DNA from: a virus | Virus record (IMG/VR): IMGVR_UViG_3300021963_000038 | Span: 71,901-135,900 of that record | Length of the DNA stretch: 64,000 bases | Direction: 5' to 3' (one strand) | Part shown: positions 11,771 through 61,354 of the stretch, in pieces | Layout: each line of letters begins with the position of its first letter | Position numbering within the stretch: the stretch's first letter is position 1 | The notes under the pieces: model-generated | What the model saw: only the letters and a program-made list of their open reading frames with translations | Database searches by the model: none | Told to the model about the DNA's origin: nothing | Made by a program: the position numbers and the translations under genes

Positions 11771-12013
11771 ATGAAGGTCGTAAATTTAAATCGTGAGTTA
11801 CCAAAAGAGAAACGTAAAAAAGATTTATTGGAAATCATCGATTCGTTTCGTCAAAGAATAGTTGATGATGAAGTTGAAGAATTTGTTATTGCTTCTATGG
11901 ATCCAAATGATGGTGAAGTTGTGATTACAGTTTGTTGCCAAGATTATGTGGGTGCAGTAGGCCTATTTGAAATTGGTAAACATATATTATTTCAAGTTAA
12001 TGAAGAACAATGA
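11771..12013 (+). CDS. hypothetical protein
   Basis: ORF with upstream GGAG. Confidence 0.6.
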   Translation: MKVVNLNRELPKEKRKKDLLEIIDSFRQRIVDDEVEEFVIASMDPNDGEVVITVCCQDYVGAVGLFEIGKHILFQVNEEQ

Positions 12014-13125
12014 GTTTAAATAGAGACCAAGCACTTCATTGTGCAAAAGCATTTGCAGACTATTTCGATAAGTTTTCCCGTATCGATGAGTATATGCGGG
12101 AGCAAAAACTTAATTCATTGGCTGAAAGACCTTTTGTTTTACCTGGATGTGGACCAGAAGAAGATTTATTTTCTGATTTTTCCATGTCACCAATGGATAT
12201 GGAGTTTGAAATTGTATTGATGGAACAGGAACGATGGGCTTCTTACCTTGATATTATTTCTTCACATAATAATCTTTCAAGTCCAGGTAAATCATTACGC
12301 TTTGGTGTTCTGGAAAAGAAAACAAATAAGTGGGTCGGATTCTGTCGCCTTGGGTCTCCAACGATTATGATGAAGCCTCGTAATGAGATGCTTGGTGAAG
12401 TCTTTACAAACACTCCAGAGGGTGCCAAATCGTTTAATAACACAACGATTATGGGTTTCGTTATTGTACCTGCTCAACCTTTTGGGTTTAATTACCTTGG
12501 TGGCAAGTTACTTGCGGCAATCTGTTGTTCACATGAAGTTAGAAATTTGTTGAATGACAAATACAAAATGAATACTTGTTTGTTTGAAACTACAAGTCTT
12601 TATGGTTCTTCAAAGGCAGCCTCACAATATGATGGTATGAAACCATATTTAAGATTCAAAGGTCTTACAGATTCAGATTTTCTACCAATGATGCACGGCA
12701 AACCATATGATGATATCAGAGATTATGTGGAAAAAATTAATGGTGGTCCTATTGTACCAGAAGATGCTTCAAGTCGTAAGTTGAAGATATCAAATACAAT
12801 TATTGCTATGACAAAGGCTGCATTGAAAACACATAAAGATGAATATGATGCCTTCGTTACTACTATCAATAATGCTAAGAATTTGACAGAACAAAAGAGA
12901 TACTATGCTTCAAACTATGGTTTTAAGAACTATGTTGATGTGGTACTTGGAAGAACCGATAAGTTGATACCAGATGAAAACTATGACAAGTTTCATATGG
13001 AGAAAATTGTAGATTGGTGGAAACAGAAGGCCACCAATCGGTTCGACAATCTAAAGACGGAAGGTCGTCTAAGAACAGAACAAGAAGTCTGGACTAGTGG
13101 AAAAGTGCTTGACATTATTCGTTAA
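12010..13125 (+). CDS. DUF4338/DruA-like protein
   Basis: PFGFNYLGGKLLA and FETTSLYG..SQY motifs. Confidence 0.65.
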   Translation: MSLNRDQALHCAKAFADYFDKFSRIDEYMREQKLNSLAERPFVLPGCGPEEDLFSDFSMSPMDMEFEIVLMEQERWASYLDIISSHNNLSSPGKSLRFGVLEKKTNKWVGFCRLGSPTIMMKPRNEMLGEVFTNTPEGAKSFNNTTIMGFVIVPAQPFGFNYLGGKLLAAICCSHEVRNLLNDKYKMNTCLFETTSLYGSSKAASQYDGMKPYLRFKGLTDSDFLPMMHGKPYDDIRDYVEKINGGPIVPEDASSRKLKISNTIIAMTKAALKTHKDEYDAFVTTINNAKNLTEQKRYYASNYGFKNYVDVVLGRTDKLIPDENYDKFHMEKIVDWWKQKATNRFDNLKTEGRLRTEQEVWTSGKVLDIIR

Positions 13126-13164
13126 ATGCGGTAGGATAAATACTCCAAAATTGATAGGAGTATT
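13109..13164 (+). promoter_or_regulatory. composite promoter plus SD-sequestering hairpin
   Basis: TTGACA-N17-TAGGAT; late-like GATAAATA; AATACTCC/GGAGTATT stem covering the SD. Confidence 0.55.
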
Positions 13165-13166
13165 AA

Positions 13167-14237
13167 ATGGCAGAAGGAATATCAGGCGCAGGTGCGGAGA
13201 TAACAGCATTAGCTGAAAGTCTGCAAGCATATGCTTGTGCAACTAGACAATATCTAGGTAAAGACCTTGTTGACATATCTCAAGTTACATCCAAAACTAT
13301 TGGTGATGCCGAATGTGATAGGACATTAGACAAGTGTATGAAAACTTTGGATGAAAATTGGTTCACAAGTGTTGTCAAAACTGCAAATCAAATATTCGTA
13401 GATGTACCTGAAGCAAGAACTGGTAACAAGTATAAATTTTATCGTGGTGGTAAATTTGTAGATTCAATTTATAATGAATGGCGTAGGATGAAAAAAGATA
13501 GTGGTCTTACAGGTGATGATAAATGGAATCCTGCCGACATTTGGATGGTCAAAAAAGGTTTCACATTGAAAACAAAATGGCCAACATTAAGGGAATACAA
13601 TCGATATATGTACGATGAGTTTGCTAGAAAGAATTTGATAGGCATTTCATTAAAGAAATTGGATCCAAAAGGTTCTGCTCACTCTAAAATTTTTAATGCA
13701 GGTAAACCATTGACAGCAGAATTTACTGGTGTCAAACTTGGACCAAATATGTTGGACTCAAAAGACATTTACATAAAATTTAAGTCTGAAGGTAAAGATG
13801 GAGAAATTCAATTGAGAAACTTCTCTAGTAGACCAGTACCATCGTCATGGCAAGGAGAAATTAAAGGTAAGACAGCTGCTGGTGGTAAAATTGGTGGCGG
13901 TGTGATTTTTGAAGGTGCCATAGATACTGGAGTTAACAGAGCAAAGTTAACATTACCTAATCAAACACCAATTGATAAACCTACTGAAGCACAATTTAAA
14001 CAGTTTGCAACGATGTTTAAAGAATTGTCAAAGAGTAAAGAATCAATTCCTAATTTAATTATTCAAGCAAAAGCAGGACACAGGAAAGATAAGACTTGGT
14101 GGATGTCAAAGTATATTGGTATCGACCTTGTGTATACTATGATTAAAGAAAAGAAAATGGATCCTCTCTGTTCTTATATGTTTCAATATGCATCATCAGC
14201 CACAAAAAACAGTAGCATTTTCATAAAGTATAGTTAA
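13167..14237 (+). CDS. putative PD-(D/E)xK-type nuclease (WNPADIW family)
   Basis: DKWNPADIW...GISLKK motif. Confidence 0.5.
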   Translation: MAEGISGAGAEITALAESLQAYACATRQYLGKDLVDISQVTSKTIGDAECDRTLDKCMKTLDENWFTSVVKTANQIFVDVPEARTGNKYKFYRGGKFVDSIYNEWRRMKKDSGLTGDDKWNPADIWMVKKGFTLKTKWPTLREYNRYMYDEFARKNLIGISLKKLDPKGSAHSKIFNAGKPLTAEFTGVKLGPNMLDSKDIYIKFKSEGKDGEIQLRNFSSRPVPSSWQGEIKGKTAAGGKIGGGVIFEGAIDTGVNRAKLTLPNQTPIDKPTEAQFKQFATMFKELSKSKESIPNLIIQAKAGHRKDKTWWMSKYIGIDLVYTMIKEKKMDPLCSYMFQYASSATKNSSIFIKYS

Positions 14238-14238
14238 T

Positions 14239-15468
14239 ATGAAATTCAAAGAATTTTTAACGGAAGCAACAGCAACAGGTAAGAACCTACACCTCGAACA
14301 TATTGAGGATGAGATTCTTAATCGTGGTGTGCAAGGTGGTCGTGATGCAATTAATTTCTTACAGTCGTTGAGAGATATGCTTGCTGGTCATGCAAAATCT
14401 AAAGTGAACATTACCACGAAATGGGATGGTGCGCCTGCCGTATTCTGTGGTATTAATCCTGAGAATGGTAAGTTCTTTGTTGGTACTAAAGGCGTCTTTA
14501 ATAAAAATGCCAAGTTAAACTATACCGATGAAGATATTGATAACAATCACCCATCTGAAGGTCTTAATGCGAAATTAAAAGTTGCTTTGCGATACTTGCC
14601 TAAGTTAGGCATCAAAGGTATTCTGCAAGGTGATATGATGTTCTCTAAAGGTGATTTAAAGAAACAAACAATCGATGGTGAAAACTATATTACATTTCAA
14701 CCAAATACAATTGTTTATGCCATACCATCCGATTCTAAACTTGCTGCGTCTATGCAAGCTGCACAAATGGGTATTGTGTTTCATACTTCATACACAGGCA
14801 GAACTATTGAAGATATGAAAGCATCTTTTAATATTGATATCGGTAAATTATCATCAACAAAAGATGTTTGGTTCCGTGATGCATCATTTGTTGATGCTTC
14901 AGGTTCAGCCACATTTACAGAAGATGAAACAAAAGAATTGACAGGCATTTTATCACAAGCAGGTAGAATATTTCAATCGATTTCTTCTCTGACAGTTAAT
15001 CGCATTGCATCTACTGAAACTATCAGAATTCAAATTGCAACATTCAACAACACCAAAGTTCGTGCTGGTGAAAGAATCAAAGATACTCAGAAACATACAA
15101 CAGAATTAATTAAAACGATTGAAGCAAAATTAAATCAACACGTTCTTGATGCCAAGAAAGAAGATACTAGGAAGAAAAGAGTTGCTGAAAAGAATGAAGT
15201 TATGCGATTCTACCGCAGTAATGCATCTGAGTTGCGTAAAGTATTTGACTTTATGAATCTGATTGTTGATGCAAAATTAAAAATCATTCGCAAATTAGAA
15301 ACTATTCGTGATGTTGGTACTTTCATTCGTACTGATGATGGGTTTAGAATTACTGCACCAGAAGGTTTTGTTGCAGTAGATAAATTAAAAGGTAACGCAG
15401 TTAAATTGGTTGATAGGTTAGAATTTGCCCACGCCAACTTTAATGCAGCTAAGAATTGGGACAAATAA
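14239..15468 (+). CDS. DUF6267-like ATP-dependent ligase/nucleotidyltransferase-fold protein
   Basis: TKWDG (motif I), QGD, EGFV and VKLV motifs; N-terminus MKFKEFLTE. Confidence 0.65.
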   Translation: MKFKEFLTEATATGKNLHLEHIEDEILNRGVQGGRDAINFLQSLRDMLAGHAKSKVNITTKWDGAPAVFCGINPENGKFFVGTKGVFNKNAKLNYTDEDIDNNHPSEGLNAKLKVALRYLPKLGIKGILQGDMMFSKGDLKKQTIDGENYITFQPNTIVYAIPSDSKLAASMQAAQMGIVFHTSYTGRTIEDMKASFNIDIGKLSSTKDVWFRDASFVDASGSATFTEDETKELTGILSQAGRIFQSISSLTVNRIASTETIRIQIATFNNTKVRAGERIKDTQKHTTELIKTIEAKLNQHVLDAKKEDTRKKRVAEKNEVMRFYRSNASELRKVFDFMNLIVDAKLKIIRKLETIRDVGTFIRTDDGFRITAPEGFVAVDKLKGNAVKLVDRLEFAHANFNAAKNWDK

Positions 15469-15749
15469 TGGCAGAGAAAAAATTTGATTTAAGTTCCATT
15501 ATGGCCGAATACGGCGATAATGATTTTGGTTTTACGGCAATCGATGAAGAAGAATACAATTCGATTATTGCTGAAAAAGAAGATACTGTTGAAGAATACA
15601 AAGCAAGACTACATGAAGTTGAGAAATTGATTCTTCCATTTCTAACAAAACTGTTACAGACGGCAGACCAACCTATCATTAAGTGGCCTAATCGAAAGCC
15701 TGTATTAGAATCACAGATTCAAAAAATATTAAACCTAACTAGAGGATGA
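15468..15749 (+). CDS. hypothetical protein
   Basis: DFGFTA..IKWPNR; coupled to upstream stop. Confidence 0.6.
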   Translation: MAEKKFDLSSIMAEYGDNDFGFTAIDEEEYNSIIAEKEDTVEEYKARLHEVEKLILPFLTKLLQTADQPIIKWPNRKPVLESQIQKILNLTRG

Positions 15750-15750
15750 T

Positions 15751-15915
15751 ATGATTGTCCGTGCTGTAAGAAAGTTAAGAGAGAAAGTAGAAAAAGATAT
15801 TCTACCAAAAGCTGGTGCAGGTCAATGGGGTACAGATGAGTTGAAAAATACTTATCTAAAAGATACACCAGGTCAAAAGATTACCAGGTTTAAAGAGTAT
15901 AGGCGACATAAGTAA
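15751..15915 (+). CDS. small hypothetical protein (GAGQWGTDEL..DTPGQ)
   Basis: manual translation, SD GAGG. Confidence 0.55.
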   Translation: MIVRAVRKLREKVEKDILPKAGAGQWGTDELKNTYLKDTPGQKITRFKEYRRHK

Positions 15916-15937
15916 TTATTTAACTGATTGGAATATT

Positions 15938-16786
15938 ATGAAAGATTTGATTATAGGTGCTTGCACCAACTATGATTGGGACAAATTAAAGTATTGGGTT
16001 AACTCAATAAACAGAAGTGGTTTTACTGGCGACAAGGTTATGGTTGCCTTTAATATAAGCTTTGAAACTGTTGACAGATTAACTAAAGCTGGTTTCCAAG
16101 TTATTGTTCCTGGTAAATCCGATGAGGTGAACAAACAATTCACCTATCAATCTAACTTACCAATCCATGTGGAACGATTCATCCACATTTACAACTATCT
16201 ACAAACACATGATGAATATCGGTATGTTATCACAACCGATGTGAAAGATGTTATCTTCCAACACAACCCATCTGAAGCATTAGACTTAGAACTAGGTGCA
16301 AGACAACTGTACCTATTTGCTTCCGAAAGTATGTACTACAAAGATGAACCATGGGGCAATCAAAATTTGATTGAAACATTTGGTCCTTTCTTCCACAATA
16401 TTTTCAAAGAGAATGAAATTTATAATGTGGGTGTTCTTGCTGGTCGTGGCCATGCTATTCAAGATTTGGCAGCAATGATTTTTGCCATGTCAGTCAATCG
16501 ACCAATACCAATTGTAGACCAATCAACATTTAACTTTATGATTTCACAAGAACCATATTTGTCAACAGCAAGATATTGTAAATCAGAAGATGGTTGGGCT
16601 TGTCAATTGGGTACAACTGTTGACCCAAGTAAGATAGAACAATTCAGACCTTTCTTATTAGAAGCATCACCAAAAATGATTGCAGGCAATGTTACAACAT
16701 CTAGAGGAAAAGACTTTACAATTGTGCATCAGTATGATAGAATACCAGAATGGCGCAAAATTATCGAGGAAAAATATAATGACTAA
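15938..16786 (+). CDS. glycosyltransferase-like protein (GT-A)
   Basis: TDVKDVIFQ, DQSTFN, HQYDR motifs. Confidence 0.65.
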   Translation: MKDLIIGACTNYDWDKLKYWVNSINRSGFTGDKVMVAFNISFETVDRLTKAGFQVIVPGKSDEVNKQFTYQSNLPIHVERFIHIYNYLQTHDEYRYVITTDVKDVIFQHNPSEALDLELGARQLYLFASESMYYKDEPWGNQNLIETFGPFFHNIFKENEIYNVGVLAGRGHAIQDLAAMIFAMSVNRPIPIVDQSTFNFMISQEPYLSTARYCKSEDGWACQLGTTVDPSKIEQFRPFLLEASPKMIAGNVTTSRGKDFTIVHQYDRIPEWRKIIEEKYND

Positions 16787-17807
16787 ACGAGTATTAATCA
16801 CCGGCGGTGCAGGCTTTATTGCACATCATTTAATTGAAACTATTCTGGACACCACAGATTGGACAATTGTATCACTTGACCGACTAGACTTCTCTGGCAA
16901 TTTAAATCGCCTAGAAGATATTATGAAGAAATATTCACCCGAACAAAAGAAACGGGTTGAGATTGTCTTTCACGATTTGCGAGCAGAAGTTAATCCACAA
17001 ACCGCTGGTTTGATTGGTGATTGCCAACTTGTGTTACACCTTGCAGCTGGTTCTCATGTAGACCGTTCAATTGAATTTCCAATGGAATTTGTGCAAGATA
17101 ATGTTATCGGCACAGTCAACCTTTTACAATTTTCAAGAACACTAAAGAACTTGGAGAGGTTTGTATACTTCTCAACTGATGAAGTATTTGGACCTGCACC
17201 TGAAGGTGTTGACTATAAAGAGAGAGACCGATATAATGCTACGAATCCTTATTCTGCCAGCAAGGCAGCGGGTGAAGAAATGTGTGTTGCCTTTGAGAAC
17301 ACTTACAATATGCCAATTTACATTACACACACAATGAATGTGTTTGGTGAACGTCAGCATCCAGAGAAATTTATTCCTAAAGCCATTCGATATGCTCGTG
17401 ATGGTGAAACACTAACTATTCATTCAGACAGAAGTAAAACTAAAGCCGGTTCTCGGCACTATGTTCATGCAAAAGATGTTGCTGATGGTTTGATGTTTAT
17501 TCTCAATTTACCTGAAGATTATGCCAAAGTTCCTGATTTTGGTGGTGCAAAGATTCCTAAATTTAACATTGTTGGACCTGATGAAGTAGATAATTTAGAG
17601 TTGGCTAAACTTATCGCAGAAGCACAAAACAAAGAACTCAAATATGAAATGGTTGATTTCCATTCATCACGACCTGGCCATGATTTGCGTTATGCATTAT
17701 CTGGTGATTACATGGCAGCTTTAGGATGGAAACCAAAGATTTCTTTGCGTGAACGCATTAGAGATATGGTTATCTGGTCATTAGAAAATGATAAGTGGCT
17801 TAAATGA
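16779..17807 (+). CDS. NDP-glucose 4,6-dehydratase (RfbB/RmlB-like)
   Basis: TGGAGFI, SHVDRS, STDEVFG, YSASK, RPGHDLRY. Confidence 0.9.
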   Translation: MTKRVLITGGAGFIAHHLIETILDTTDWTIVSLDRLDFSGNLNRLEDIMKKYSPEQKKRVEIVFHDLRAEVNPQTAGLIGDCQLVLHLAAGSHVDRSIEFPMEFVQDNVIGTVNLLQFSRTLKNLERFVYFSTDEVFGPAPEGVDYKERDRYNATNPYSASKAAGEEMCVAFENTYNMPIYITHTMNVFGERQHPEKFIPKAIRYARDGETLTIHSDRSKTKAGSRHYVHAKDVADGLMFILNLPEDYAKVPDFGGAKIPKFNIVGPDEVDNLELAKLIAEAQNKELKYEMVDFHSSRPGHDLRYALSGDYMAALGWKPKISLRERIRDMVIWSLENDKWLK

Positions 17808-18508
17808 AAATAGCATTATGTCTATCAGGACAACCTCGTAGTGTAAAACAAGGCTATGAGTTTGTTAAACGCAACATACTAGACGGTAACGATGTTACCG
17901 TTTTTTGCCATGTTTGGGAAAATCCAGAGGTCATAGATATTGAACTTTATAAACCTGAAGCGTATATGATGGAGAAATCTTTAACTGATGACTTATCAAA
18001 ATACACAAGATTTCCACCACCACAACCAAATTGGAAAGTAAAAGATCCAGTCCGTTCAACATATAATCAATTGTATGCTATCTTAAAGTGCAACGAATTA
18101 AAACTTGTATATGAAGATGAAAACAGTATGAAGTTTGATTGGGTCATTCGTAGTCGTTTTGATTTTGCAATCAATGCTAAAATTCCATTTGAAGAATTAG
18201 ATAACAGTAAACTTCACATACCTAATTGCCGTATGGTACCAAGTCGTGATTTTGGCAATGACCAATTTGCATTTTCTTCATCTGAAAACATGGACAAATA
18301 TTCTGATACATTTAATCGTATCGATGAATTTTATGATTCAGGCACACAAATGATGTGTGAAGATTTGATGAGTGCAAATTGGAAACAGAAAGGTTTGATT
18401 GGTGAAAATCTTGTTTACTGTGATATCAATCACCCGTTTCCTCCAGGTCCATACAATGGAACTTGGCACAGTTTAATTCGTGAGGACTTTGAACAATGGC
18501 TTCGTTAG
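17804..18508 (+). CDS. putative glycosyltransferase
   Basis: MKIALCLSGQPR..RSRFD..NDQFA family. Confidence 0.55.
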   Translation: MKIALCLSGQPRSVKQGYEFVKRNILDGNDVTVFCHVWENPEVIDIELYKPEAYMMEKSLTDDLSKYTRFPPPQPNWKVKDPVRSTYNQLYAILKCNELKLVYEDENSMKFDWVIRSRFDFAINAKIPFEELDNSKLHIPNCRMVPSRDFGNDQFAFSSSENMDKYSDTFNRIDEFYDSGTQMMCEDLMSANWKQKGLIGENLVYCDINHPFPPGPYNGTWHSLIREDFEQWLR

Positions 18509-19221
18509 TAATTTGCATGGCTGGTTTGAATACCAGATTCCATGATGTTGGTTTTGATATACCAAAGTATTTGTTACCATGGAAAAATGAAACAATCATC
18601 CATGAGATTCTCAAACAACTAGGTAAATTTGATGAAATCCTATTGTTAGCTAATAAGCGTGATGTGTATTTCATGCCTAACTTGGTGAAAACTATTGAAC
18701 CACTTGGTCTCACTAAAGATAATATTCATTATATTGGTGACACAAGTGGTCAAGCACATACTGCTTATATTGGTGCCTCACTATTAAAGAACAGAAATAC
18801 CCTTCCCCATCCTTTCTTTGTTCATAATGCCGACACACTATTGATTGGCAGAGATTTCAAAGAAATTGAATCAACAATGTCTGATGGTTATGTTGATGTG
18901 TTTGTTGCCAACAATCCAAAATATTCTTATGTCAGGTCAAAAGATGGTCTTGTGACCGAGATTGTTGAGAAGGCTTTTATTTCTCCATTTGCAAGTTCTG
19001 GTCTTTATGGTTTTAATAATCCCAATCTATATCAAAAAATGTATGAATCTCTATCACAGGGATATATGGGAAAAGAAATGTATATTGCAAATGTGTTAGA
19101 CTATATGATAAAGAATAATATGTCGATTGGTCTAAATGAATTGAATAATGAATATGAAACAATCGTTCTTGGTAGTCCACAAGAATACGGCCTTGAATTG
19201 GCAAGAATGAGTTTAAAATGA
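18496..19221 (+). CDS. sugar/cyclitol-phosphate nucleotidyltransferase
   Basis: MAGLNTRF..PKYLL, NAD, EK, GLYGF motifs. Confidence 0.8.
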   Translation: MASLVICMAGLNTRFHDVGFDIPKYLLPWKNETIIHEILKQLGKFDEILLLANKRDVYFMPNLVKTIEPLGLTKDNIHYIGDTSGQAHTAYIGASLLKNRNTLPHPFFVHNADTLLIGRDFKEIESTMSDGYVDVFVANNPKYSYVRSKDGLVTEIVEKAFISPFASSGLYGFNNPNLYQKMYESLSQGYMGKEMYIANVLDYMIKNNMSIGLNELNNEYETIVLGSPQEYGLELARMSLK

Positions 19222-20186
19222 AAATAAAAGACTTGAAAGGTGGTTCTTTAAGTACCACAGAGTTACACGAAATTGATGGTGTTCATTATGTCAAAAAGAA
19301 AATCAATCTTGTCAAAGAAAGAGAATATGGATTTGTTCGTTGGTATTCTCAATTAAAGAAGATACAAAGATACTCTGTTGATTTTCCAAGTTTGTTTCCA
19401 AAAATTATTGATGTTTCATATGAAACAGACTATGCAGTTATGACTTTACAACACATGGAAGGTTTTAGAGATATCAAAACTATTCTATCCGAAGATAAAT
19501 TAACTGAGCAACAGATTATAAAAATAGTAGATGCTATTTGGAAATCATTTGCTTTACTACATTCTAAAACTTATCCACCAGTTATTGGTGCGCCTAAGTT
19601 ATATTATAAAGAAGAAGTGAGGCAGAAACTAAATGATGCTTTGATAAATGATGAATTTCTACAATTTTTCGGTCATGCTACAGGTGGCGTATTTGAATAC
19701 AATGGTGAAATGACTCATGGTATATTTTCTTATCTTTATGAATTAGAAAATATATTCTTTGATTTGAAACTTTCTTCTGAAGAAAACATACATGGTAATC
19801 CAACATTGGAAAATATGTTGTATTCATTTGAGGAAGATAGAGTTGTTTTTATTGACCTCTATGAAGAAAGTATGATGGACACAAAGTTTCTAGATTATGC
19901 ACAGGTGTTACAGTGTTCACGCAGTCATTATGGTTATATAAATGACCGTGATGTTGTTGTTATGGGTTCAAGTGTATCTCATAATTTAGAAATACCAAAA
20001 AACTTTGAGAAATTCAATTTCTATTTTGAATTGAAGATTCCAAACAATTGGATTAAGTTGGTAAATATATTAGAAGCCACACAATTCATTCGTATGTTGC
20101 CATTCAAATGTCGTGCTGGTGAGATTAAAAAGGCAAAGTTCTTCTATGTTCATGCCTGTAACTTATTAGGTAAGGTTTTAAATTAA
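19218..20186 (+). CDS. APH/choline-kinase-like phosphotransferase
   Basis: GGS loop, HGNPTLENML and FIDL motifs. Confidence 0.7.
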   Translation: MKIKDLKGGSLSTTELHEIDGVHYVKKKINLVKEREYGFVRWYSQLKKIQRYSVDFPSLFPKIIDVSYETDYAVMTLQHMEGFRDIKTILSEDKLTEQQIIKIVDAIWKSFALLHSKTYPPVIGAPKLYYKEEVRQKLNDALINDEFLQFFGHATGGVFEYNGEMTHGIFSYLYELENIFFDLKLSSEENIHGNPTLENMLYSFEEDRVVFIDLYEESMMDTKFLDYAQVLQCSRSHYGYINDRDVVVMGSSVSHNLEIPKNFEKFNFYFELKIPNNWIKLVNILEATQFIRMLPFKCRAGEIKKAKFFYVHACNLLGKVLN

Positions 20187-21319
20187 TGGAAAATGTATTA
20201 GTTAATTTTGACAATTTCAAAAGAACTTGGTCTGTTAAGGCAGAGTTACCTGTTTCTTTTACTGTCAAATATTCAAGTGATATTTTCAATTCATCTAACT
20301 TGGATTTGTTGTCATATAATGATTCTTATCGTAGGTTGGTTGTTATCGATAAAACAGTTTATGAAATTTACAAAGATGATTTGCATAGTTTTTTTGATAA
20401 ACATAAAGTTGAGTTGAAATTATTTGTAATTGATGCAACAGAAGAAAACAAGGATTGGAAACATACAGATGAAGTTTTAAGATTCTTTGAAGATGTTGGT
20501 GTTCTTCGTAGAGAACCAATCATTGCTATTGGTGGTGGAGTTTTACTAGACCTTGTTGGTTTCTGTTGCAGTATCTATCGCCGTGGTATTCCTTACATTA
20601 AGATACCAACAACATTATTGGCAATCGTAGATGCTTCAGTTGGTGTTAAAGTTGCCGCAAATCATTTTGATAGGCGTAATCGTATTGGTGCATACTATCC
20701 ACCAATCGCAACCTTTCTCGACAAGAAGTTTATCAAGACACAAAACGAAAGAGATATCGTTAATGGTATTGCTGAGATATTCAAACTTGCTGTTATCAAG
20801 AGTGAAGAATTGTTTGTCTTACTTGAAGAAAACTATGAACAATTAATTAATGAGAAGTTTCAATTTGGTGCGGTACCTGTTCGTGTAATCAACCTTGCAA
20901 TCACAGGTATGATTGATGAATTGGCACCAAATCTATGGGAAAAGAAATTAGACCGATGTGTTGACTTTGGTCATTCATTTGGTCCTTTGATAGAGATGAA
21001 TAACTTACCAAACCTATATCACGGTGAGGCTGTTGTGTTAGATTGTTTGTTCAGTTCTTGTATTGCAGAAGTTCGTGGGTATATCACAAGAGAACAGTTA
21101 TCGAGAATCTTTATTTGTGCTAAAAAATTAAAACTACCAACATGGCACCAAGATTTTTCTAAGGTTCGTTTACTTGAGTCTGCCTTAGAAGATACAAAGA
21201 AACACAGAAATGGTAATCAATATCTTCCTGTGCCAATTGGTATTGGACAATATACAATGTTGAATAATGTTACTGTCGATGAATTGAGAGTGGCAGCTGA
21301 TTTATTTGAGGAAATATGA
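20186..21319 (+). CDS. sedoheptulose-7-phosphate cyclase, 2-epi-5-epi-valiolone synthase (EEVS) type
   Basis: GGGVLLD, PTTLLAIVDASVG, MIDELAPNLWE..RCVDFGHSF, HGEAV. Confidence 0.85.
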   Translation: MENVLVNFDNFKRTWSVKAELPVSFTVKYSSDIFNSSNLDLLSYNDSYRRLVVIDKTVYEIYKDDLHSFFDKHKVELKLFVIDATEENKDWKHTDEVLRFFEDVGVLRREPIIAIGGGVLLDLVGFCCSIYRRGIPYIKIPTTLLAIVDASVGVKVAANHFDRRNRIGAYYPPIATFLDKKFIKTQNERDIVNGIAEIFKLAVIKSEELFVLLEENYEQLINEKFQFGAVPVRVINLAITGMIDELAPNLWEKKLDRCVDFGHSFGPLIEMNNLPNLYHGEAVVLDCLFSSCIAEVRGYITREQLSRIFICAKKLKLPTWHQDFSKVRLLESALEDTKKHRNGNQYLPVPIGIGQYTMLNNVTVDELRVAADLFEEI

Positions 21320-21993
21320 AAACAATTTTAATTACTGGCACAACAAGTGGTCTTGGTGCTACGATTGCTCACCACTATCTCGAACAAGGTTGGAATGTAA
21401 TTGGTTTAGCTCGTAGTGATTCTATATTTTCATATTCTAACTATAAACATTATAAGACAGACATTAGTAAAATCTATACAAGTTTAAGTGATACCTTTGA
21501 CCAAATCGGAGATACTAAGATTGATATCTTGGTTAACAATGCCGCTATTTTTAAAATGAAATCTTTTTCAGAAACAAGAATTGATGATATGTGCGATATG
21601 ATTGATATCAATCTTAAAGGTCCAATGTATGTAACTAAGTTTGCATTAAAAAATATGGAAAAAGGCAGTCGTATATTTTTCATCAATTCAGTTGCTGGTT
21701 TAGAACAATTAGAAAACCAATCTGTATATTGTGCCACAAAACATGGTCTTACAGGATTTGCAGGAGTTCTTGGTAAAGAATTGCAATCAAAAGGAATCAA
21801 AGTTACCAGCATACATCCAGGTGGTATTGATACACCACTATGGAACAAAGATGTACCTTACCCATGTGGTGATGTAAGTAAGGCAATCTCACCAATAGAG
21901 GTTGTAAAATTAATTGATTTCGTGTATAATAGTAAATTCAATATTGATTATAAAACAATTAAAATGTTCCCTGATACAGAATGGCATCAATGA
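21316..21993 (+). CDS. SDR oxidoreductase
   Basis: TGTTSGLG, NNA, YCATK, PGGIDT. Confidence 0.9.
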   Translation: MKTILITGTTSGLGATIAHHYLEQGWNVIGLARSDSIFSYSNYKHYKTDISKIYTSLSDTFDQIGDTKIDILVNNAAIFKMKSFSETRIDDMCDMIDINLKGPMYVTKFALKNMEKGSRIFFINSVAGLEQLENQSVYCATKHGLTGFAGVLGKELQSKGIKVTSIHPGGIDTPLWNKDVPYPCGDVSKAISPIEVVKLIDFVYNSKFNIDYKTIKMFPDTEWHQ

Positions 21994-22712
21994 GTATTAT
22001 ACCTGACAACCACCTTTTCATAGTTACTTCTGCCCTTAATACGGGCATTGGTGTTATTGATTTTGAAACTCGTGTCAATCAAACACTTGAAACCTTGAAA
22101 GTTCTCCGTGAAAGAGTGCCTCAAGCAATTATTACTTTGACTGATGCATCATCAAGACCAGTAGATAAATCTATCATGGATGAAATGTCGAAGTACAGTA
22201 ACATAAATTTAATATTTCATAATGATAGTGACCTGTGTACACTTGCAAATGCTGGATTAAAATCACAAGCAGAAATTATACTGTTACATAAAACATTATC
22301 AATGTTCAAAATGAATGCTGATTTGTTAAAAGTCATGTCAAGTGTAAAGAGAGTTTACAAATTATCAGGTAGAACTAATTTGATTGATGGTTTTGACATT
22401 GAAAGATATAATGATAAAAACTTGTATGGTAAATATGTTTTTAAGAAACGTATGCCATCATGGATGCCTATCGATAAACAAGTTGGCACGGGTGCAGACC
22501 ACTTATTGATTACAAGAATGTATTCTATCTGTATTTCTTTATTAGATAACTACTACAATACATTACCTTTGATTTATCAATCTGTGAATGAAAACAATAT
22601 TGATACGGAACATGGACATTACAAGCACATAGATAAACAATACTTGGTTGAATTTGATAATTTGTATTGCCAAGGAACTATGGCATCAACAGGACTTACG
22701 GAAACATATTGA
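21981..22712 (+). CDS. hypothetical glycan-cluster protein
   Basis: YKLSGR motif; cluster context. Confidence 0.5.
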   Translation: MASMSIIPDNHLFIVTSALNTGIGVIDFETRVNQTLETLKVLRERVPQAIITLTDASSRPVDKSIMDEMSKYSNINLIFHNDSDLCTLANAGLKSQAEIILLHKTLSMFKMNADLLKVMSSVKRVYKLSGRTNLIDGFDIERYNDKNLYGKYVFKKRMPSWMPIDKQVGTGADHLLITRMYSICISLLDNYYNTLPLIYQSVNENNIDTEHGHYKHIDKQYLVEFDNLYCQGTMASTGLTETY

Positions 22713-23995
22713 TGATTGATGATAAACTAATTGAAGAACTTGCTCGTCAAGCAAAACCAAAATATCAACAAGACTACACTAACTTTAATCCAGAAAAAGA
22801 TTATGTGATGTATTCTGGTCAGTTGTGGGACCATGACGAGTTTGCAGCTGGTCTTAAATCTTTTCTAACAGGTAAATGGTTGCCTGCTGGTGAAAGAGTT
22901 GAACAATTTCAAATGAAGTTTTCAAAGAAATATAATGTGAAGGCTTCGCACATGGTAAACTCTGGTTCATCAGCCAATTTGGTTATGATGGCCGCAGTTA
23001 AGAATCATCTACAATGGCAAGATGGTGATGAAGTTATCGTTTCACCTGTAGGATTCCCAACTACAATCGCACCATTGATGCAGAACAACCTCAAACCAGT
23101 ATTCATTGATATTGAGTTTGATACATTAAACTTTGATGTGAATCTAATCGAAGAAAAGATTACACCAAAAACAAAAGCAATCATTGTTTCTCCTGTGTTG
23201 GCAAACCCACCAGATATGGATGCGATTGTTGATATCTGCAAGAAACATAATCTTGTGTTGATTGGTGACAATTGTGATTCACTAGGCACCAAATGGGATG
23301 GTAAATTAATTACCGATTTATATTACTGTTGGTCAACATCATTCTATCCCGCACACCATATGTCAACAGGTGAAGGTGGCATGATTTCATCCAACGACAT
23401 TAAACTGATTGATGTTGCTAGGTCTATATCATGGTGGGGTCGTGATTGTTATTGTGTCGGTTCAAACAATATGTTACCATGTGGTACTTGTGGCAATCGA
23501 TTCGATAAATGGTTACCTGGTTATGATGGCATCATCGACCACAAATACATCTTTGCATATGCAGGTTATAATTTGAAACCACTTGATATGCAAGGTGCTA
23601 TTGGTATTGCACAACTAGGAAAAGTTGATTACATAGACCAGAAAAGAAAAGAACACAAAGAACGATTATCTAAACTGCTGACTAAGTATTTGAATGTTCG
23701 TATTGCAGATAAGTTAGAGAAGTCAGACCCATCATGGTTTGGTGTTCCAATTATTTGTGAATCACAAGAAGTGAAAGAAAAGTTAGTTGCCTTCTTTGAA
23801 GCAAATCGTATTCAAACAAGAAACTATTTTGCTGGTAATATATTGTTACATCCAGGTTTTAAACATCTAGATGATGCAAGTAAATATCCATTGGCAAACA
23901 AAGCACTATCTCATGTATTTTTGTTAGGTTGTCCTCCTTTTTGGAACGATGCAGTATTTGATTACATTGAAAAGGTATTAAAATCATGTCAGTAA
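22712..23995 (+). CDS. rfbH: RfbH/DdhC-type NDP-4-keto-6-deoxyhexose 3-dehydrase (DegT family)
   Basis: NSGSSANL, DNCDSLG, SFYPAHH (His in place of Lys), WGRDCYC...TCG Fe-S motif. Confidence 0.85.
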   Translation: MIDDKLIEELARQAKPKYQQDYTNFNPEKDYVMYSGQLWDHDEFAAGLKSFLTGKWLPAGERVEQFQMKFSKKYNVKASHMVNSGSSANLVMMAAVKNHLQWQDGDEVIVSPVGFPTTIAPLMQNNLKPVFIDIEFDTLNFDVNLIEEKITPKTKAIIVSPVLANPPDMDAIVDICKKHNLVLIGDNCDSLGTKWDGKLITDLYYCWSTSFYPAHHMSTGEGGMISSNDIKLIDVARSISWWGRDCYCVGSNNMLPCGTCGNRFDKWLPGYDGIIDHKYIFAYAGYNLKPLDMQGAIGIAQLGKVDYIDQKRKEHKERLSKLLTKYLNVRIADKLEKSDPSWFGVPIICESQEVKEKLVAFFEANRIQTRNYFAGNILLHPGFKHLDDASKYPLANKALSHVFLLGCPPFWNDAVFDYIEKVLKSCQ

Positions 23996-24177
23996 TTATT
24001 GATAAACCACACTACAAATTAACCGTAGATAAAAATCCAGTTTTTAACCCACCAGAGTTGAAAGAATTAGTTTTTAAAAAAACTTCATACAATGAAGATG
24101 GTTCTATTCTTACTTACAGTAAATTTGAATTGTATCTCACTGAAGATGAAATTAAAATGATTAAAGCTGCACTATGA
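23986..24177 (+). CDS. hypothetical protein
   Basis: ORF overlapping both neighbours. Confidence 0.5.
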   Translation: MSVIIDKPHYKLTVDKNPVFNPPELKELVFKKTSYNEDGSILTYSKFELYLTEDEIKMIKAAL

Positions 24178-24989
24178 AAGTACAAGTATTTGGTGGTAAT
24201 GGATTTGTTGGTTCTGCTTATGTGAAAAGAAATCCAGATTGTATTGTTAAATCAAGAAATGACTACACCGTAGGTGCAGAAGATGTTCTTTATATGATTT
24301 CGACAGTTACAAATTACCATGTCAAAACAGACCCATACATTGATATCAAAACTAATTTGATGACGTTGATGATGGTGTTGAGTCAATGTAAAGATATGAA
24401 TTTGACATTTAACTTTGTCAGTTCATGGTTTGTTTATGGTGAAACAGAAATGCCTGCAACTGAAGAATCAAATTGTTACCCAAATGGTTTCTATTCGATT
24501 ACAAAAAGATGTGCAGAACAATTATTGATTTCTTATTGTGAAACTTTTGGTATCAAGTATCGTATTCTCAGATTGGCCAATGTAGCGGGTCATGGTGATA
24601 AGAAAGCCTCACCACAAAAGAACGCACTTCAACATATGATTAATGAATTGAAGTTAGGTCGTGATGTAAATGTGTATGATGGTGGTAATTTGTATCGTGA
24701 TTATATTCATGTCAATGATGTTGCCCGAGCAATCGAATTGATATTGGAAAAAGGTGAAGTAAACACAATCTATAATGTGGGCAATGGTATGCCTCTTTTG
24801 TTTAAAGATATGATTGAGTATGCCAAAGAATTAGTCGGTGGGCAAGGCAAATTAAATCCAATCGAAATTCCACAGTTCCACAAGACAGTTCAAGTCCGTA
24901 GTATGTGGATGAAGAACGACAAATTGGCAGCGCTTGGATACACTCTAATGTACGATATGAAGGCTATCATTCAAGACATGGTGAAATGA
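24174..24989 (+). CDS. NAD-dependent epimerase/reductase
   Basis: GGNGFVG, SSWFVYG, YSITK, RDYIHV. Confidence 0.85.
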   Translation: MKVQVFGGNGFVGSAYVKRNPDCIVKSRNDYTVGAEDVLYMISTVTNYHVKTDPYIDIKTNLMTLMMVLSQCKDMNLTFNFVSSWFVYGETEMPATEESNCYPNGFYSITKRCAEQLLISYCETFGIKYRILRLANVAGHGDKKASPQKNALQHMINELKLGRDVNVYDGGNLYRDYIHVNDVARAIELILEKGEVNTIYNVGNGMPLLFKDMIEYAKELVGGQGKLNPIEIPQFHKTVQVRSMWMKNDKLAALGYTLMYDMKAIIQDMVK

Positions 24990-25636
24990 ATTTAATTCTA
25001 TATCAGGCATATTACCAGCAAGAACAACTTGTTCACCTAGATTCGACTTTTACTCCTTACGACAATACGGCAAACGATGCACCACATTTGCGTGAGTTGC
25101 CGATGTGGAGAAAGTTATTAGAACAACACAAAGACTCCGATTTACATTGGGGTCTTTTGTCATGGAGATGGTTACAAAAAACTGGTGTACCACCAATAAA
25201 ATTCAAAGAATGGATTCTCGCAAATGAAGGTTACGATGTTTATCATCTAGACCCTTTTGCATATCTTGCCAATGATTTTCCAAATTTATGGGTGCAAGGT
25301 GATATGTGGCATCCAGGTATGCTAGAGTTTGCAAGAATATTATTTCCAAAAATTGGCATCAATACACCAGTTGAACAGTTTAAATATCTACCTGAAGATT
25401 TTGGAACTTGCAATTATTTTGTAGGCAACTCTAAATTTTGGACAAATTACCTTGGTTTTATTGACCTATGTCTAAAACTATGTGATGAAGATGAACGGTT
25501 GAGCAACTACATATACAAAGATGGTCGAGAATATAATGGACATTTTATTCCATACTTTTCATTTGTTATTGAAAGGTTGTTCTCTATTCACAATATTTTG
25601 AATCGACAAATAACTGTTAAAAAATACCATGATTAA
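24986..25636 (+). CDS. hypothetical glycan-related protein
   Basis: GLLSWRW and FVIERLF; cluster context. Confidence 0.5.
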   Translation: MNLILYQAYYQQEQLVHLDSTFTPYDNTANDAPHLRELPMWRKLLEQHKDSDLHWGLLSWRWLQKTGVPPIKFKEWILANEGYDVYHLDPFAYLANDFPNLWVQGDMWHPGMLEFARILFPKIGINTPVEQFKYLPEDFGTCNYFVGNSKFWTNYLGFIDLCLKLCDEDERLSNYIYKDGREYNGHFIPYFSFVIERLFSIHNILNRQITVKKYHD

Positions 25637-26411
25637 TCAATTTGACTATGAAAAGTTAATTAAACAATATCAAGAAGGCAAACCATTTCGCCATGTGGTG
25701 ATTGACAACTTCTTTGATGCTGAAACTGCATTGAAACTATCTGCTGAATTTCCAGACTTCAATGACCCTAAAATTTGGTCTGTATATAAGAACCCTATTG
25801 AGAATAAGAAACTGACTCCTAATTGGGACTTGTTTCCTAAAAATACATACCGAGCATTTACTTTGATGAATACTCCAGAGTTTGTTGATAAGATTCGCAT
25901 AATTACAGGTATCAATAATCTAGAAGCCGATTATGGTTTACATGGTGGTGGTTGGCACATGACTGCTCGAGGTGGTAAATTGAATATGCACAAAGATTAT
26001 TCAATTCATCCTAAACTAGGCAAAGAAAGACGCATCAACATTATCATCTACATGACACCTGCATGGGAAGAAGAATGGGGTGGTGGTTTAGAATTCTGGT
26101 CACATGATGCAGAGAAGAATCTACCAAAAGAATGTGTGACCAAATTGTATAATAAATTTAATCGTGCGGTTCTATTTGACACCGCAGATAACTCATGGCA
26201 TGGACTACCAACAGAGCTCCAATGTCCAGAAGGTGTATATCGTAAGTCATTGAATATTTACTATGTTTCTGAAGCCAGACCGGAATCAGAAAAACACGAT
26301 AAAGCTTTGTTTGCACCATATGGTGACCAAGTAAATGACCCTCAGATACTTGAATTGATTAAAAAACGGTCTAGTTCCAAGACATCCGGTGAAGTTTACA
26401 GAACACCGTAA
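25629..26411 (+). CDS. 2OG-Fe(II) oxygenase
   Basis: HKD, WGGGLE, FNRAVLF, WHG, RKS motifs. Confidence 0.85.
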   Translation: MINQFDYEKLIKQYQEGKPFRHVVIDNFFDAETALKLSAEFPDFNDPKIWSVYKNPIENKKLTPNWDLFPKNTYRAFTLMNTPEFVDKIRIITGINNLEADYGLHGGGWHMTARGGKLNMHKDYSIHPKLGKERRINIIIYMTPAWEEEWGGGLEFWSHDAEKNLPKECVTKLYNKFNRAVLFDTADNSWHGLPTELQCPEGVYRKSLNIYYVSEARPESEKHDKALFAPYGDQVNDPQILELIKKRSSSKTSGEVYRTP

Positions 26412-26414
26412 ATA

Positions 26415-26422
26415 CATAAATA
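26415..26422 (+). promoter_or_regulatory. T4-type late promoter candidate
   Basis: intergenic CATAAATA (T4 consensus TATAAATA). Confidence 0.5.
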
Positions 26423-26460
26423 GTCTGTAAACTTGTAATATTATCGCTGTAGAGGCGGAA

Positions 26461-28608: not shown

Positions 28609-28609
28609 T

Positions 28610-29614
28610 ATGAAAACATTTAATACATTTGTTGTTGAAGATTTACGCAAGTGGTTCAGTAAAACCGATCCAGAAGGTGGTTGGAAAAGAATCAACAGTA
28701 AAGGTGAAGCAATTGGTCCTTGTGCAAGAGAACCAGGTGAACCTAAACCTAAGTGTATGTCAAATGAAAAGAGAGCTCAACTAACTAAAAAAGAAAGAGC
28801 ATCTGCTGTTCGTGCAAAAAGAAAACACGACCCTAATCCTGAGAGAAAAGGTGAACCAATCAACGTGTCAAACTTTGGTAAAGGAAAGATATCAGAAGCA
28901 TCAGCAGCTGCTATTGCAGCCGCTACTGCAATTTCTAAAAAGAAATCTGGAAATTATGACAAAGATGGGTTAAGAGTTAAACCCTACAAGAATCCAGATG
29001 CTCCAAATAAAAAGTCAAATGAGCAAAGGAAAAAAGAAATGAAAGAAGAAATCGAACAAATCGATGAAAAGAATGTACCAACAAGTCCTGAAAAATGGGC
29101 ACAAGCTAAAGCACAAGCTAAAGCTAAGTTTGATGTATATCCTTCTGCTTATGCGAATGGTTGGGCATCAAAGAAGTATAAAGAGATGGGTGGTGGATGG
29201 AAATCTGTTAGTGAAAAAGAAGAATTGCTTTCATTTAAATCATTCATCAACGAAAGATGCTGGCCAGGTTATAAAGAAGTACCAGGCAAAAAAGCATATG
29301 AACAAGGTTCTTGCAGAAAAGAAGAAGTTGAATTGGATGAAGTTGCTGCTTGGCAACGCAAAGAAGGTAAATCTGAATCTGGTGGCCTAAATCGTAAAGG
29401 TATTGAATCATATCGTAGAGAGAATCCAGGTTCTAAACTTTCAATGGCAGTTACAACAAAACCATCAAAATTAAAACCAGGTTCGAAATCAGCAAATCGT
29501 AGAAAATCATTTTGTGCTCGCATGGGCGGCATGAAGAAGCGTTTGACTTCTGATAAAACTGCAAATGATCCAGATTCACGCATCAATAAAGCATTAAGAA
29601 AATGGAATTGTTAA
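28610..29614 (+). CDS. modular basic internal head protein (DUF5872/DUF6321-like modules)
   Basis: EDLRKWF, YPSAYAN, CWPGY, RRKSFCARM modules; N-terminus MKTFNTFVVE. Confidence 0.6.
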   Translation: MKTFNTFVVEDLRKWFSKTDPEGGWKRINSKGEAIGPCAREPGEPKPKCMSNEKRAQLTKKERASAVRAKRKHDPNPERKGEPINVSNFGKGKISEASAAAIAAATAISKKKSGNYDKDGLRVKPYKNPDAPNKKSNEQRKKEMKEEIEQIDEKNVPTSPEKWAQAKAQAKAKFDVYPSAYANGWASKKYKEMGGGWKSVSEKEELLSFKSFINERCWPGYKEVPGKKAYEQGSCRKEEVELDEVAAWQRKEGKSESGGLNRKGIESYRRENPGSKLSMAVTTKPSKLKPGSKSANRRKSFCARMGGMKKRLTSDKTANDPDSRINKALRKWNC

Positions 29615-61352: not shown

Positions 61353-61354
61353 AT

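Follow-up and report, generated by a model that had tools for sequence, protein, structure and literature searches.

An EEVS-type cyclase cassette of T4-like aquatic phages, shared with scattered bacteria and archaea and predicted to activate a C7 cyclitol

Here we describe a gene island in 64,000 nucleotides of phage DNA (the window; bases 71901-135900 of the 135.9 kb IMG/VR virus record IMGVR_UViG_3300021963_000038, whose completeness is estimated at ~82%). At the heart of the island lies a sugar-phosphate cyclase that we predict to be of the EEVS type (EEVS, the synthase of 2-epi-5-epi-valiolone), accompanied by a kinase, a nucleotidyltransferase (NTase) and a short-chain dehydrogenase/reductase (SDR). 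The island probably constitutes a phage-borne glycan-building set, in which these four enzymes would convert sedoheptulose 7-phosphate (SH7P) into a nucleoside-diphosphate (NDP)-activated C7 cyclitol for use in a glycoconjugate. We appear to be dealing with a compact and hitherto undescribed C7-cyclitol activation route in a clade of aquatic T4-like phages and in scattered bacteria and archaea.

The cyclase sits in a run of six overlapping plus-strand genes at 17804-22712, which encode proteins of 234, 241, 322, 377, 225 and 243 amino acids (aa) and which we call C to H: a glycosyltransferase (GT)-like protein predicted to have a GT-A fold (C, 17804-18508), a sugar-phosphate NTase (D, 18496-19221), a small-molecule kinase resembling APH and choline kinases (E, 19218-20186), the cyclase (F, 20186-21319), a classical SDR and proposed ketocyclitol reductase (G, 21316-21993), and a second, phage-specific protein whose predicted model is likewise GT-A-like (H, 21981-22712). 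Successive genes overlap by 13, 4, 1, 4 and 13 bases, which would fit translational coupling. An earlier note on this DNA, made from the sequence alone, had described the same array at the same positions, and our annotation confirms it. The run extends in both directions, so that the whole island comprises 13 open reading frames (ORFs; A to M, 15938-26411). We refer to D, E, F and G as the core.

Our assignment of F as an EEVS-type SH7P cyclase rests on its ranking against solved structures, on residues that separate the cyclase classes and on its place in a tree. F includes GMIDELAPNLWEKKLDRCVDFGHSFGP, the motif from which the earlier note had argued for EEVS and against both 3-dehydroquinate synthase (DHQS, AroB) and desmethyl-4-deoxygadusol synthase (DDGS). 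Its architecture, a DHQ_synthase domain (PF01761, 2.1e-33) followed by DHQS_C (PF24621, 1.2e-21), is DHQS-like, and the EEVS enzymes ValA and AcbC have the same two Pfam domains. When F is searched against chains in the Protein Data Bank (PDB), the best of 16 matches is ValA (4P53), a solved EEVS and hence the best solved relative of F, at 5.5e-84 and 285 bits. Anabaena DDGS (5TPR) reaches 217 bits (3.9e-63), the best DHQS 132 bits (2.4e-37), under half of the ValA score, and DOIS, the synthase of 2-deoxy-scyllo-inosose, 86 bits (1.9e-23).

For comparing residues, we labelled reference cyclases by gene context. The eight DDGS references (two groups of four, from one cyanobacterial order) comprise six with an O-methyltransferase next to them, as in mycosporine clusters, and two included as close relatives of these six; the six AroB references are a Polynucleobacter paralogue beside shikimate kinase and five low-scoring cyanobacterial paralogues placed here by score alone. 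At F positions 246, 251, 260, 265 and 340, all 54 phage-type cyclases carry L, W, D, F and H. The corresponding residues are E, H or F, A, W, and T or K in the DDGS group, and V, K or R, N, I (4/6) and V (5/6) in the AroB group, which also has H at position 267 and A at 257; F has neither the N at 260 nor the H at 267. PDB alignments agree with this division: at the five sites the context-labelled DDGS sequences match 5TPR and the phage-type sequences match ValA, and the motifs that the earlier note had quoted for DDGS and DHQS are those seen in the 5TPR and 6LK2 alignments. Seven residues of F (E197, H263, H279, D149, K155, N165 and K200) are invariant across all cyclase groups, and we take them to be the Glu/His/His that bind metal in this superfamily, together with its catalytic Lys/Asn/Asp.

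The ValA structure yielded a 14-residue fingerprint, and two sites separate bacterial EEVS from DDGS (PMC4426668). F shares residues that set EEVS enzymes of the ValA/AcbC type apart, including the VDFGHSF and KHR(N/D)G motifs: its D260 (in VDFGH) and H340 (in KHRNG) align with the D and H of ValA and are kept in 54 of 54 phage-type sequences. The two separating sites are presumably ValA Asp281 and His360, which, in 4P53 numbering minus a presumed six-residue tag, fall on the Asp in VDFGH and the His in KHRDG.

For the tree, we used 78 of 152 extracted cyclases, among them 18 phage-type loci plus F of the window and 28 of the 66 other EEVS-like sequences, and ran IQ-TREE in its 'quick' mode. 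AroB forms the outgroup across a long branch (support 99) and DDGS a single clade (100). The 19 phage rows also form one clade (SH-aLRT 93), nested in a group of 33 cyclases that all have a kinase and an NTase beside them (81); this group is in turn nested in a set of 39 EEVS-like sequences (97), away from DDGS and AroB. Of the tree comparisons that the earlier note had called for, those with AroB and DDGS leave F outside both reference clades, and the grouping with AroB that it had named as damaging to its idea does not occur. Phage and cassette-linked cyclases stand apart from the sampled actinomycete enzymes. F differs from EEVS of the ValA/AcbC type in being viral and in sharing its own clade with the cyclases of an undescribed kinase-cyclase-reductase-NTase cassette. 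A separate observation concerns a cyanobacterial EEVS-like cyclase (L144, G020:C70:29176-33267; 42% identity to F), which sits on a long unplaced branch and whose next gene encodes a short O-methyltransferase of 219 aa. Such an arrangement is unlike the pairs of DDGS with O-methyltransferases of 270-280 aa and may be gadusol-like.

Might F nonetheless be nothing but AroB, in a cluster of auxiliary genes for shikimate or for sugars in general? Database names would have us think so. In a large protein collection, the best 120 of 3,388 matches to F (72-99% identity) are, where named, mostly called '3-dehydroquinate synthase', EEVS appearing once among the 120, and aroB is the best NCBIfam model for F (9.2e-62). 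However, the aroB score of 209 bits lies under the model's cut-off of 305, DHQS structures fall far behind ValA, the AroB residues at 260 and 267 are missing from F, AroB lies across a long branch, and no second shikimate gene adjoins F in Pfam and NCBIfam scans. We give this alternative next to no credence.

If the core genes serve one pathway, they should travel together, and they do. We scanned IMG/VR and recovered 54 viral loci encoding the cyclase at 63-92% identity, then recorded the presence of the other island genes by tblastn of the window proteins (at least 50% coverage). The core genes are found in nearly all of these loci (D in 50, E in 51, F in 52, G in 51), the GT-like genes in most (C in 45, H in 43, A in 40) and the accessory genes in a minority (I in 9, K in 8, L in 7, M in 9, J in 3; B, counted at no less than 90% identity, in 8/54). 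D, E, F and G occur together in 47 of 54 loci; in the other seven (L003, L019, L020, L045, L049, L054 and L055), a contig end falls inside or beside the cassette. The gene order is A-(B)-C-D-E-F-G-H-(I-M), and its recurrence on dozens of viral contigs that are independent of one another means that the arrangement is not due to chance. The survey of synteny across phage contigs suggested in the earlier note thus finds the core linked throughout, contig ends apart. By tblastn, five viral loci (L016, L017, L026, L029 and L039) carry D-E-F-G without A, C and H, although a hidden Markov model (HMM) detects three C-like ORFs in L029 that tblastn missed. Among 50,697 phage records we found no close homologue of F: 15 matched, all at less than 32% identity and AroB-like.

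Two further loci with a phage-type D-E-F-G cassette (~70% identity) come from contigs binned into metagenome-assembled genomes, one gammaproteobacterial and one of the 'Caenarcanales' (L056, on a contig of 262,794 bases, and L057). Both look phage-derived and may be mis-binned phage contigs or prophage-like regions, and we set them aside. In L056, a GtrB-like GT2 gene adjoins the cassette, and upstream there is a protein of at least 1,531 aa whose frame is still open at the edge of the locus. Scanned against PHROG, the genes next to the L056 and L029 cassettes yielded just the GtrB-like GT2 and a permease-like match, neither of which indicates an acceptor.

The cassette is not confined to viruses. 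F matches 19,860 proteins at an E-value of at most 1e-3 among 1.84 billion representatives, and a profile scan of genome contigs with a 13-sequence alignment returned 80 loci, 78 of them cellular once L056 and L057 had been removed. Homologues of E and D lie beside the cyclase in 14 of the 78, in Woesearchaeota, another archaeon, Saccharibacteria, Myxococcota (4), Balneolaceae, Fibrobacteria, Holophagaceae, Desulfobulbaceae, Magnetovibrionaceae, a Prochlorococcus single-amplified genome (SAG) and a cultured Polynucleobacter; the SDR is present as well in nine of the 14, where the usual order is E-F-G-D. In the Prochlorococcus SAG (L094, 5981-7060), the gene after D-E-F encodes an aldo/keto reductase and not the SDR. 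We read this as a non-homologous replacement, and because one reductase has been swapped for an unrelated one, it argues that the reduction step is needed. Further along L094, in LPS-type surroundings, there are a CMP-sugar-type cytidylyltransferase, a GT9-like gene and a housekeeping-looking flavoprotein of the aspartate-oxidase/succinate-dehydrogenase type.

Gene fusions tell a similar story. Ten of the listed F matches were scanned against Pfam. In one (P0123), an E-like kinase (34% identity to E, 1e-43) is fused to the cyclase; in three (P0130, P0133 and P0135) the fused kinase is of the ROK type; in P0163 the partner is an NTP_transferase domain, and in P0129 an AMP-binding enzyme. Of the indirect evidence for a single pathway comprising all four activities, the fusions and the reductase swap are the strongest. 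Kinase, NTase and SDR, which the earlier note had cast as partners of the cyclase, emerge from viral and cellular co-occurrence and from fusion as obligate ones. On a different note, P0129, P0121, P0197, P0202 and P0269 carry EEVS-like domains within very long proteins (947 to 2787 aa), several with two matched stretches, which suggests megasynthase-type fusions.

Where cellular cassettes sit also bears on what their product may be used for. In Polynucleobacter (L097), the cassette has ManC, GT2 and a Wzz-like gene to one side of it; to the other lie an ABC-type ATPase, a GT9 gene and a GDP-mannose 4,6-dehydratase. In Balneolaceae (L067), it occurs with an ABC transporter, a formyltransferase, a methyltransferase, a DegT-family protein, a C-like protein, a HAD-NTase and a GT2. 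By analogy, this setting would favour surface glycans as the target.

The partner enzymes can be assigned with varying precision. G is a classical SDR (adh_short, 2.6e-39 in Pfam). A profile of 24 D sequences, searched against the PDB, matches an NDP-sugar pyrophosphorylase (4EVW) at 2e-41, RmlA at 6.9e-7 and GlmU at 2.6e-6, with weaker matches to an IspD-like cytidylyltransferase (1.9e-5) and to the ribitol-5-phosphate cytidylyltransferase TarI (5.7e-4), so that D appears somewhat closer to the sugar-1-phosphate NTases RmlA and GlmU than to IspD or TarI. E alone has no Pfam match above threshold, yet when 25 members of its family are scanned singly, fructosamine kinase is matched by 8, choline kinase by 6 (best 1.1e-5), Pkinase by 5 and APH by 4 (best 5.9e-6), and look-alikes of E in a protein atlas carry APH. 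The family alignment features a G-rich loop (LKGGSLS), an invariant Lys and the stretch HGNxTLEN...FIDxYE. On this evidence, the E family is a new family of putative kinases with an unusual HGN catalytic loop.

The proteins at either end of the core are harder to place by sequence. The first gene of the island, A (15938-16786, plus strand), encodes a putative, phage-specific glycosyltransferase: it has no Pfam or NCBIfam match, it matches phrog_1579 ('glycosyltransferase') at 9.1e-7, and its look-alikes in the protein atlas are viral clusters, in one of which 10% of members carry PF03407, a lead only. C and H have no sequence-family match above threshold. C shows a weak match to DUF7796 (8e-4) and phrog_13607, H has none in Pfam, NCBIfam or PHROG, PDB profile searches with either protein return nothing significant, and hhalign detects no relation among A, C and H. 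We therefore turn to predicted structures (AlphaFold; pLDDT 82.7 for C and 92.6 for H). Foldseek searches of the PDB place the C model with GT6-type retaining transferases, which account for all of its best 50 matches (GTA/GTB, alpha3GalT, BoGT6a; E from 2e-7), and the H model with CmsA/Ktr4, glycogenin, alpha3GalT, Kre2/Mnt1 and GfsA (E from 4e-7). All fold matches of both proteins are GT-A-fold glycosyltransferases, so that, as far as models go, the flanking proteins look as glycosyltransferase-like as the earlier note had supposed. In one viral contig, an in-frame stop codon interrupts the gene A homologue (L013:5097-5939), which may be a pseudogene or reflect a sequencing error.

What pathway might these parts compose? 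F would cyclise SH7P from the host to 2-epi-5-epi-valiolone, a ketocyclitol free of phosphate; the SDR G would reduce the C1 ketone to a pseudo-anomeric hydroxyl; the APH-like kinase E would phosphorylate the reduced cyclitol; and the NTase D would join the cyclitol phosphate to a nucleoside monophosphate, giving an NDP-C7-cyclitol of the NDP-2-epi-5-epi-valiolol type. To make and activate a mimic of a sugar 1-phosphate from the presumed cyclase product, a ketone that lacks phosphate, one would need exactly this set of reductase, kinase and NTase. C, H and probably A could then use the NDP-cyclitol along with other NDP-sugars to build or decorate a glycoconjugate, and a second module (B, I, K and perhaps L and M) might supply a sugar of the 3,6-dideoxyhexose type. 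Since the island has no recognised epimerase or dehydratase, the ring of the cyclitol probably stays saturated. Family- and fold-level identities, the EEVS active-site pattern, strict co-occurrence, fusions and cellular contexts are direct observations; from them we infer the substrate and product of each step, the order of reductase, kinase and NTase, the phosphorylated position, the nucleotide and the acceptor.

Several observations weigh against this interpretation. For the cyclase, the PDB comparison spans EEVS, DDGS, DHQS and DOIS, with no solved 2-epi-valiolone synthase in it; D260, F265 and P267 are present by construction in the 'other EEVS-like' group, being part of the scan pattern; and the tree, a 'quick' search, has several open forks. 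The product of F could be a different cyclitol derived from SH7P, or a stereoisomer. For the kinase, residues 192-199 of E read HGNxTLEN, with Asn at the position that the catalytic Asp occupies in APH-type kinases. HGN is found in 22/22 viral E sequences and in 24 of 25 overall, the sole HGD member being archaeal (L061), and the best PDB match of E is the JAK2 pseudokinase domain, which likewise has HGN. Because the catalytic Asp is replaced and the closest structure is a pseudokinase, kinase activity of E is not assured. For the transferases, fold similarity of C and H to GT-A enzymes is limited (TM about 0.5 in both cases), and HMM searches find A and H in none of the cellular loci and a C-like gene beside just one cellular cassette. 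Being nearly absent there, A, C and H may serve ordinary sugars. Finally, the pseudoglycosyltransferases known to us are of the GT-B type and take GDP-valienol, an unsaturated donor; we know of no GT-A enzyme among them, nor of any enzyme at all that transfers a saturated carbasugar.

One alternative is decoration with cyclitol phosphate. If the kinase acted elsewhere on the cyclitol, for example on the primary C7 hydroxyl, D might produce a CDP-cyclitol, from which cyclitol phosphate would be transferred onto a glycan through a phosphodiester, in the manner of CDP-ribitol or CDP-glycerol. No substitution at a carbocyclic carbon would then be required. Pairing a reductase with an NTase follows TarJ/TarI logic, the IspD-like and TarI matches of the D profile point the same way, and cellular cassettes do sit in polysaccharide loci. 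Yet D fits sugar-1-phosphate NTases better, no phosphotransferase of the TagF, LicD or stealth type was recognised in the island (Pfam, NCBIfam, PHROG), the neighbouring C and H resemble Leloir GT-A transferases in their predicted folds, and the strictly linked reductase would be superfluous for a C7 kinase. We consider this scenario unlikely.

Activation at the pseudo-anomeric position, the reading we favour, invites comparison with the validamycin and acarbose pathways, on which the earlier note had modelled its proposal. According to PMC7081202, AcbC turns SH7P into 2-epi-5-epi-valiolone, which is later phosphorylated, reduced and nucleotidylated in the acarbose pathway. The logic of cyclising, reducing, phosphorylating and nucleotidylating is common to both, and in both cases a single locus encodes an SDR and an NTase along with a 4,6-dehydratase and a DegT-family enzyme. 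The differences are considerable. ValC and AcbM are ROK kinases; the island kinase is APH/choline-kinase-like, and no island protein has a ROK domain. No 2-epimerase or dehydratase of the AcbO or AcbL type was recognised among the 13 island ORFs, of which A, H, J and L have no assigned enzyme family and might include a novel enzyme for either step. There is no aminotransferase, the DegT-family protein I being a predicted 3-dehydrase, and C and H are GT-A-like rather than GT-B pseudoglycosyltransferases, enzymes that resemble trehalose-6-phosphate synthase. With four defining features absent (ROK kinase, epimerase plus dehydratase, aminotransferase, GT-B pseudoglycosyltransferase), we rejected a validamycin/acarbose pathway proper. 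What survives of the analogy is the general logic; kinase type, epimerase, dehydratase, aminotransferase and transferase fold do not carry over. The activated carbasugar itself, also proposed in the earlier note, fares better: with kinase, NTase and SDR as obligate partners of the cyclase, an activated C7 cyclitol would be the most economical product, even if likeness to the two drug pathways extends no further than their general scheme.

Another parallel is the NDP-heptose pathway, in which GmhA, HddA or HldE, GmhB and HddC convert SH7P to an NDP-activated C7 unit. Both routes start from SH7P, would end in an NDP-C7 compound and occur in lipopolysaccharide or capsule loci with GT9-type transferases. 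In the cassette, however, a DHQS-like cyclase takes the place of the isomerase, the predicted product is carbocyclic, and the kinase and NTase are of other families. The island also resembles the sugar islands of T4-like cyanophages and pelagiphages and virion glycosylation systems, in that a variable set of NDP-sugar and glycosyltransferase genes is lodged in a T4-like genome, but we know of no such island with an SH7P cyclase. Among the papers that our literature search covered, supplements aside, we found no virus-encoded EEVS or cyclitol pathway and no link of EEVS to surface-antigen loci, in keeping with the earlier note's remark that no phage example had been characterised.

Alternatively, the product might be soluble: a free pseudo-oligosaccharide or cyclitol glycoside, perhaps a glycosidase or trehalase inhibitor or a signal, that acts on the host or on competitors during infection. 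The EEVS products named in the literature consulted are small molecules, namely acarbose, validamycin, kirkamide and gadusol (PMC12904256) and streptol glucoside (10.1101/2022.09.27.509721), and acarbose is built by NDP activation and a single coupling (PMC7081202). A deoxysugar module combined with glycosyltransferases would not look out of place in a natural-product cluster either. On the other hand, genes of the kinds usual for surface polysaccharides (Wzz, ABC transporter, GT2, GT9) accompany the cassette in the cellular loci examined, and family scans of the island revealed no exporter, aminotransferase or tailoring set of the known inhibitors. A soluble product thus strikes us as improbable, and we continue to regard a glycoconjugate as the destination of the cyclitol.

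The deoxysugar module consists of accessory genes, all on the plus strand and carried by a minority of related viral loci. B (16782-17807) encodes an SDR resembling NDP-hexose 4,6-dehydratases (GDP_Man_Dehyd 3.3e-50, Epimerase 1.3e-46; 1.6e-70 and 237.7 bits against TIGR01181, dTDP-glucose 4,6-dehydratase, under the cut-off of 365). I (22709-23995) appears to be a pyridoxamine-phosphate-dependent NDP-4-keto-6-deoxyhexose 3-dehydrase of the E1/RfbH type: it matches 3BCX, the E1 CDP-4-keto-6-deoxyglucose 3-dehydrase, at 5e-69 and ColD at 3.8e-47, scores 363.5 bits (1.3e-108) against NF011936 (RfbH), under the cut-off of 423, and shares the SFYPAHH and WGRDCYC motifs with E1, in which His replaces the Schiff-base Lys of aminotransferases. 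Given this His for Lys (SFYPAHH) and the E1 match, I, a DegT-family member and the sole protein of the PLP/PMP fold in the island, is not an aminotransferase. J (23986-24177) is a small ORF of 63 aa with no family match; K (24174-24989) is an NAD-dependent epimerase/reductase (Epimerase, 2.2e-32); L (24986-25636), whose ATG overlaps the stop codon of K, has no Pfam or PHROG match; and the island ends with M (25629-26411), a 2OG-Fe(II) oxygenase (2OG-FeII_Oxy_3, 4.6e-15). B, I and K, perhaps with L and M, look like a branch towards a sugar of the 3,6-dideoxyhexose type, in which neither an E3-type flavodoxin-reductase-like gene nor a dedicated hexose-1-phosphate NTase was seen in Pfam and NCBIfam scans of the island.

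We next consider the genome in which the island resides. Long ORFs of the window all lie on one strand, and PHROG matches include a family-B DNA polymerase, UvsX, a DnaB-like replicative helicase, a primase and ribonucleotide reductase; polymerases of Synechococcus myoviruses share 51% identity with the one encoded here. From these genes we take the record to be that of a T4-like aquatic phage, and IMG/VR membership, replication genes and polymerase relatives together uphold the phage origin assumed in the earlier note. Searches of the 135.9 kb record revealed neither psbA nor a transaldolase. At 61276-63997, where the window and the record both end, 14 tRNA genes form an array. DNA near-identical to 17804-22712 is present in 20 sequencing runs from 14 studies, labelled as marine, estuary, lake-water and freshwater metagenomes; 10 of the 20, one of them possibly the source run, hold at least half of the sampled words, and no RNA run is among the listed holders.

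The island, whose GC content (0.33-0.37) is inside the range of the window, lies in the replication and nucleotide-metabolism region between a DUF6267 ligase-like gene (14239-15468, with a ligase-like TKWDG motif) and a gene for a 715-aa protein with cytidylyltransferase-like and Zeta-toxin-like P-loop parts (26461-28608). Because the two products match different halves of PHROG 455 (764 aa), the flanking genes appear to be fused or adjacent in other phages. The sugar island, then, is to all appearances inserted between two conserved phage genes. Elsewhere in the replication region, at 12010-13125, we noted a 371-aa phage protein (phrog_19197, 4.6e-137) that contains a stretch resembling DruA (Pfam DruA, 1.3e-9), a domain related to Druantia defence.

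With regard to transcription, the T4-type late-promoter motif TATAAATA has no occurrence in the 64 kb window against 5.7 expected by shuffling, and occurs six times, always on the plus strand, in the first 50 kb of the record, the structural half. Several of these sites lie directly upstream of long ORFs, as expected of T4-type late promoters. Absence from the window and presence elsewhere weakly suggest that the island does not have a dedicated late promoter driving its transcription. Scanning 13000-29000 for sigma-70 promoter and terminator consensus sequences gave nothing above chance (63 promoter-like sites with 69 expected, 11 terminator-like with 8 expected).

This location prompts a final alternative, namely that an activated cyclitol or sugar is placed on a modified base, as T4 does with glucose, so as to evade restriction. 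The phage is T4-like, its island lies among replication and nucleotide-metabolism genes in a window free of late-promoter motifs, and phage-encoded sugar activation with glycosyltransfer to DNA is an established paradigm. But the record encodes just ThyX: searching its 135.9 kb (~82% complete) for the ThyA family (PF00303), to which dCMP/dUMP hydroxymethylases belong, returned 0 matches, with positive controls. Moreover, the cassette also occurs in cellular polysaccharide loci, and the GT-A folds predicted for C and H differ from the GT-B fold of the T4 enzymes. Given no ThyA-family hydroxymethylase in the record, DNA is disfavoured as the decorated target, contrary to one of the options in the earlier note, and we hold this alternative to be very improbable.

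Looking beyond the phage at hand, one can sketch a broader scenario, which we offer tentatively since we doubt it more than we believe it. Aquatic T4-like phages of this clade, along with scattered bacteria and archaea (Polynucleobacter, Prochlorococcus, myxobacteria, Fibrobacteria, Woesearchaeota and others), might build glycoconjugates from carbocyclic pseudo-sugars by a minimal four-enzyme route of EEVS, ketoreductase, APH-like 1-kinase and NTase, followed by GT-A transfer. The resulting linkages would be proof against glycosidases, phage depolymerases among them, and could serve to re-dress the host surface or virions.

What would such a route mean? In the literature consulted, C7 cyclitols form the core of drugs and sunscreens that are small molecules (acarbose, validamycin, gadusol), and their producers are bacteria and certain eukaryotes. 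A cyclitol route encoded by viruses, if true, would represent a new auxiliary metabolic function that drains the host's pentose-phosphate pool, and it is one conserved in more than 50 viral contigs. The analysis also brings to light widespread mis-annotation, most homologues of the cyclase being named 3-dehydroquinate synthase. And the presence of the cassette in cellular surface-polysaccharide loci suggests that carbasugars have gone unrecognised among the units from which microbial glycans are built.

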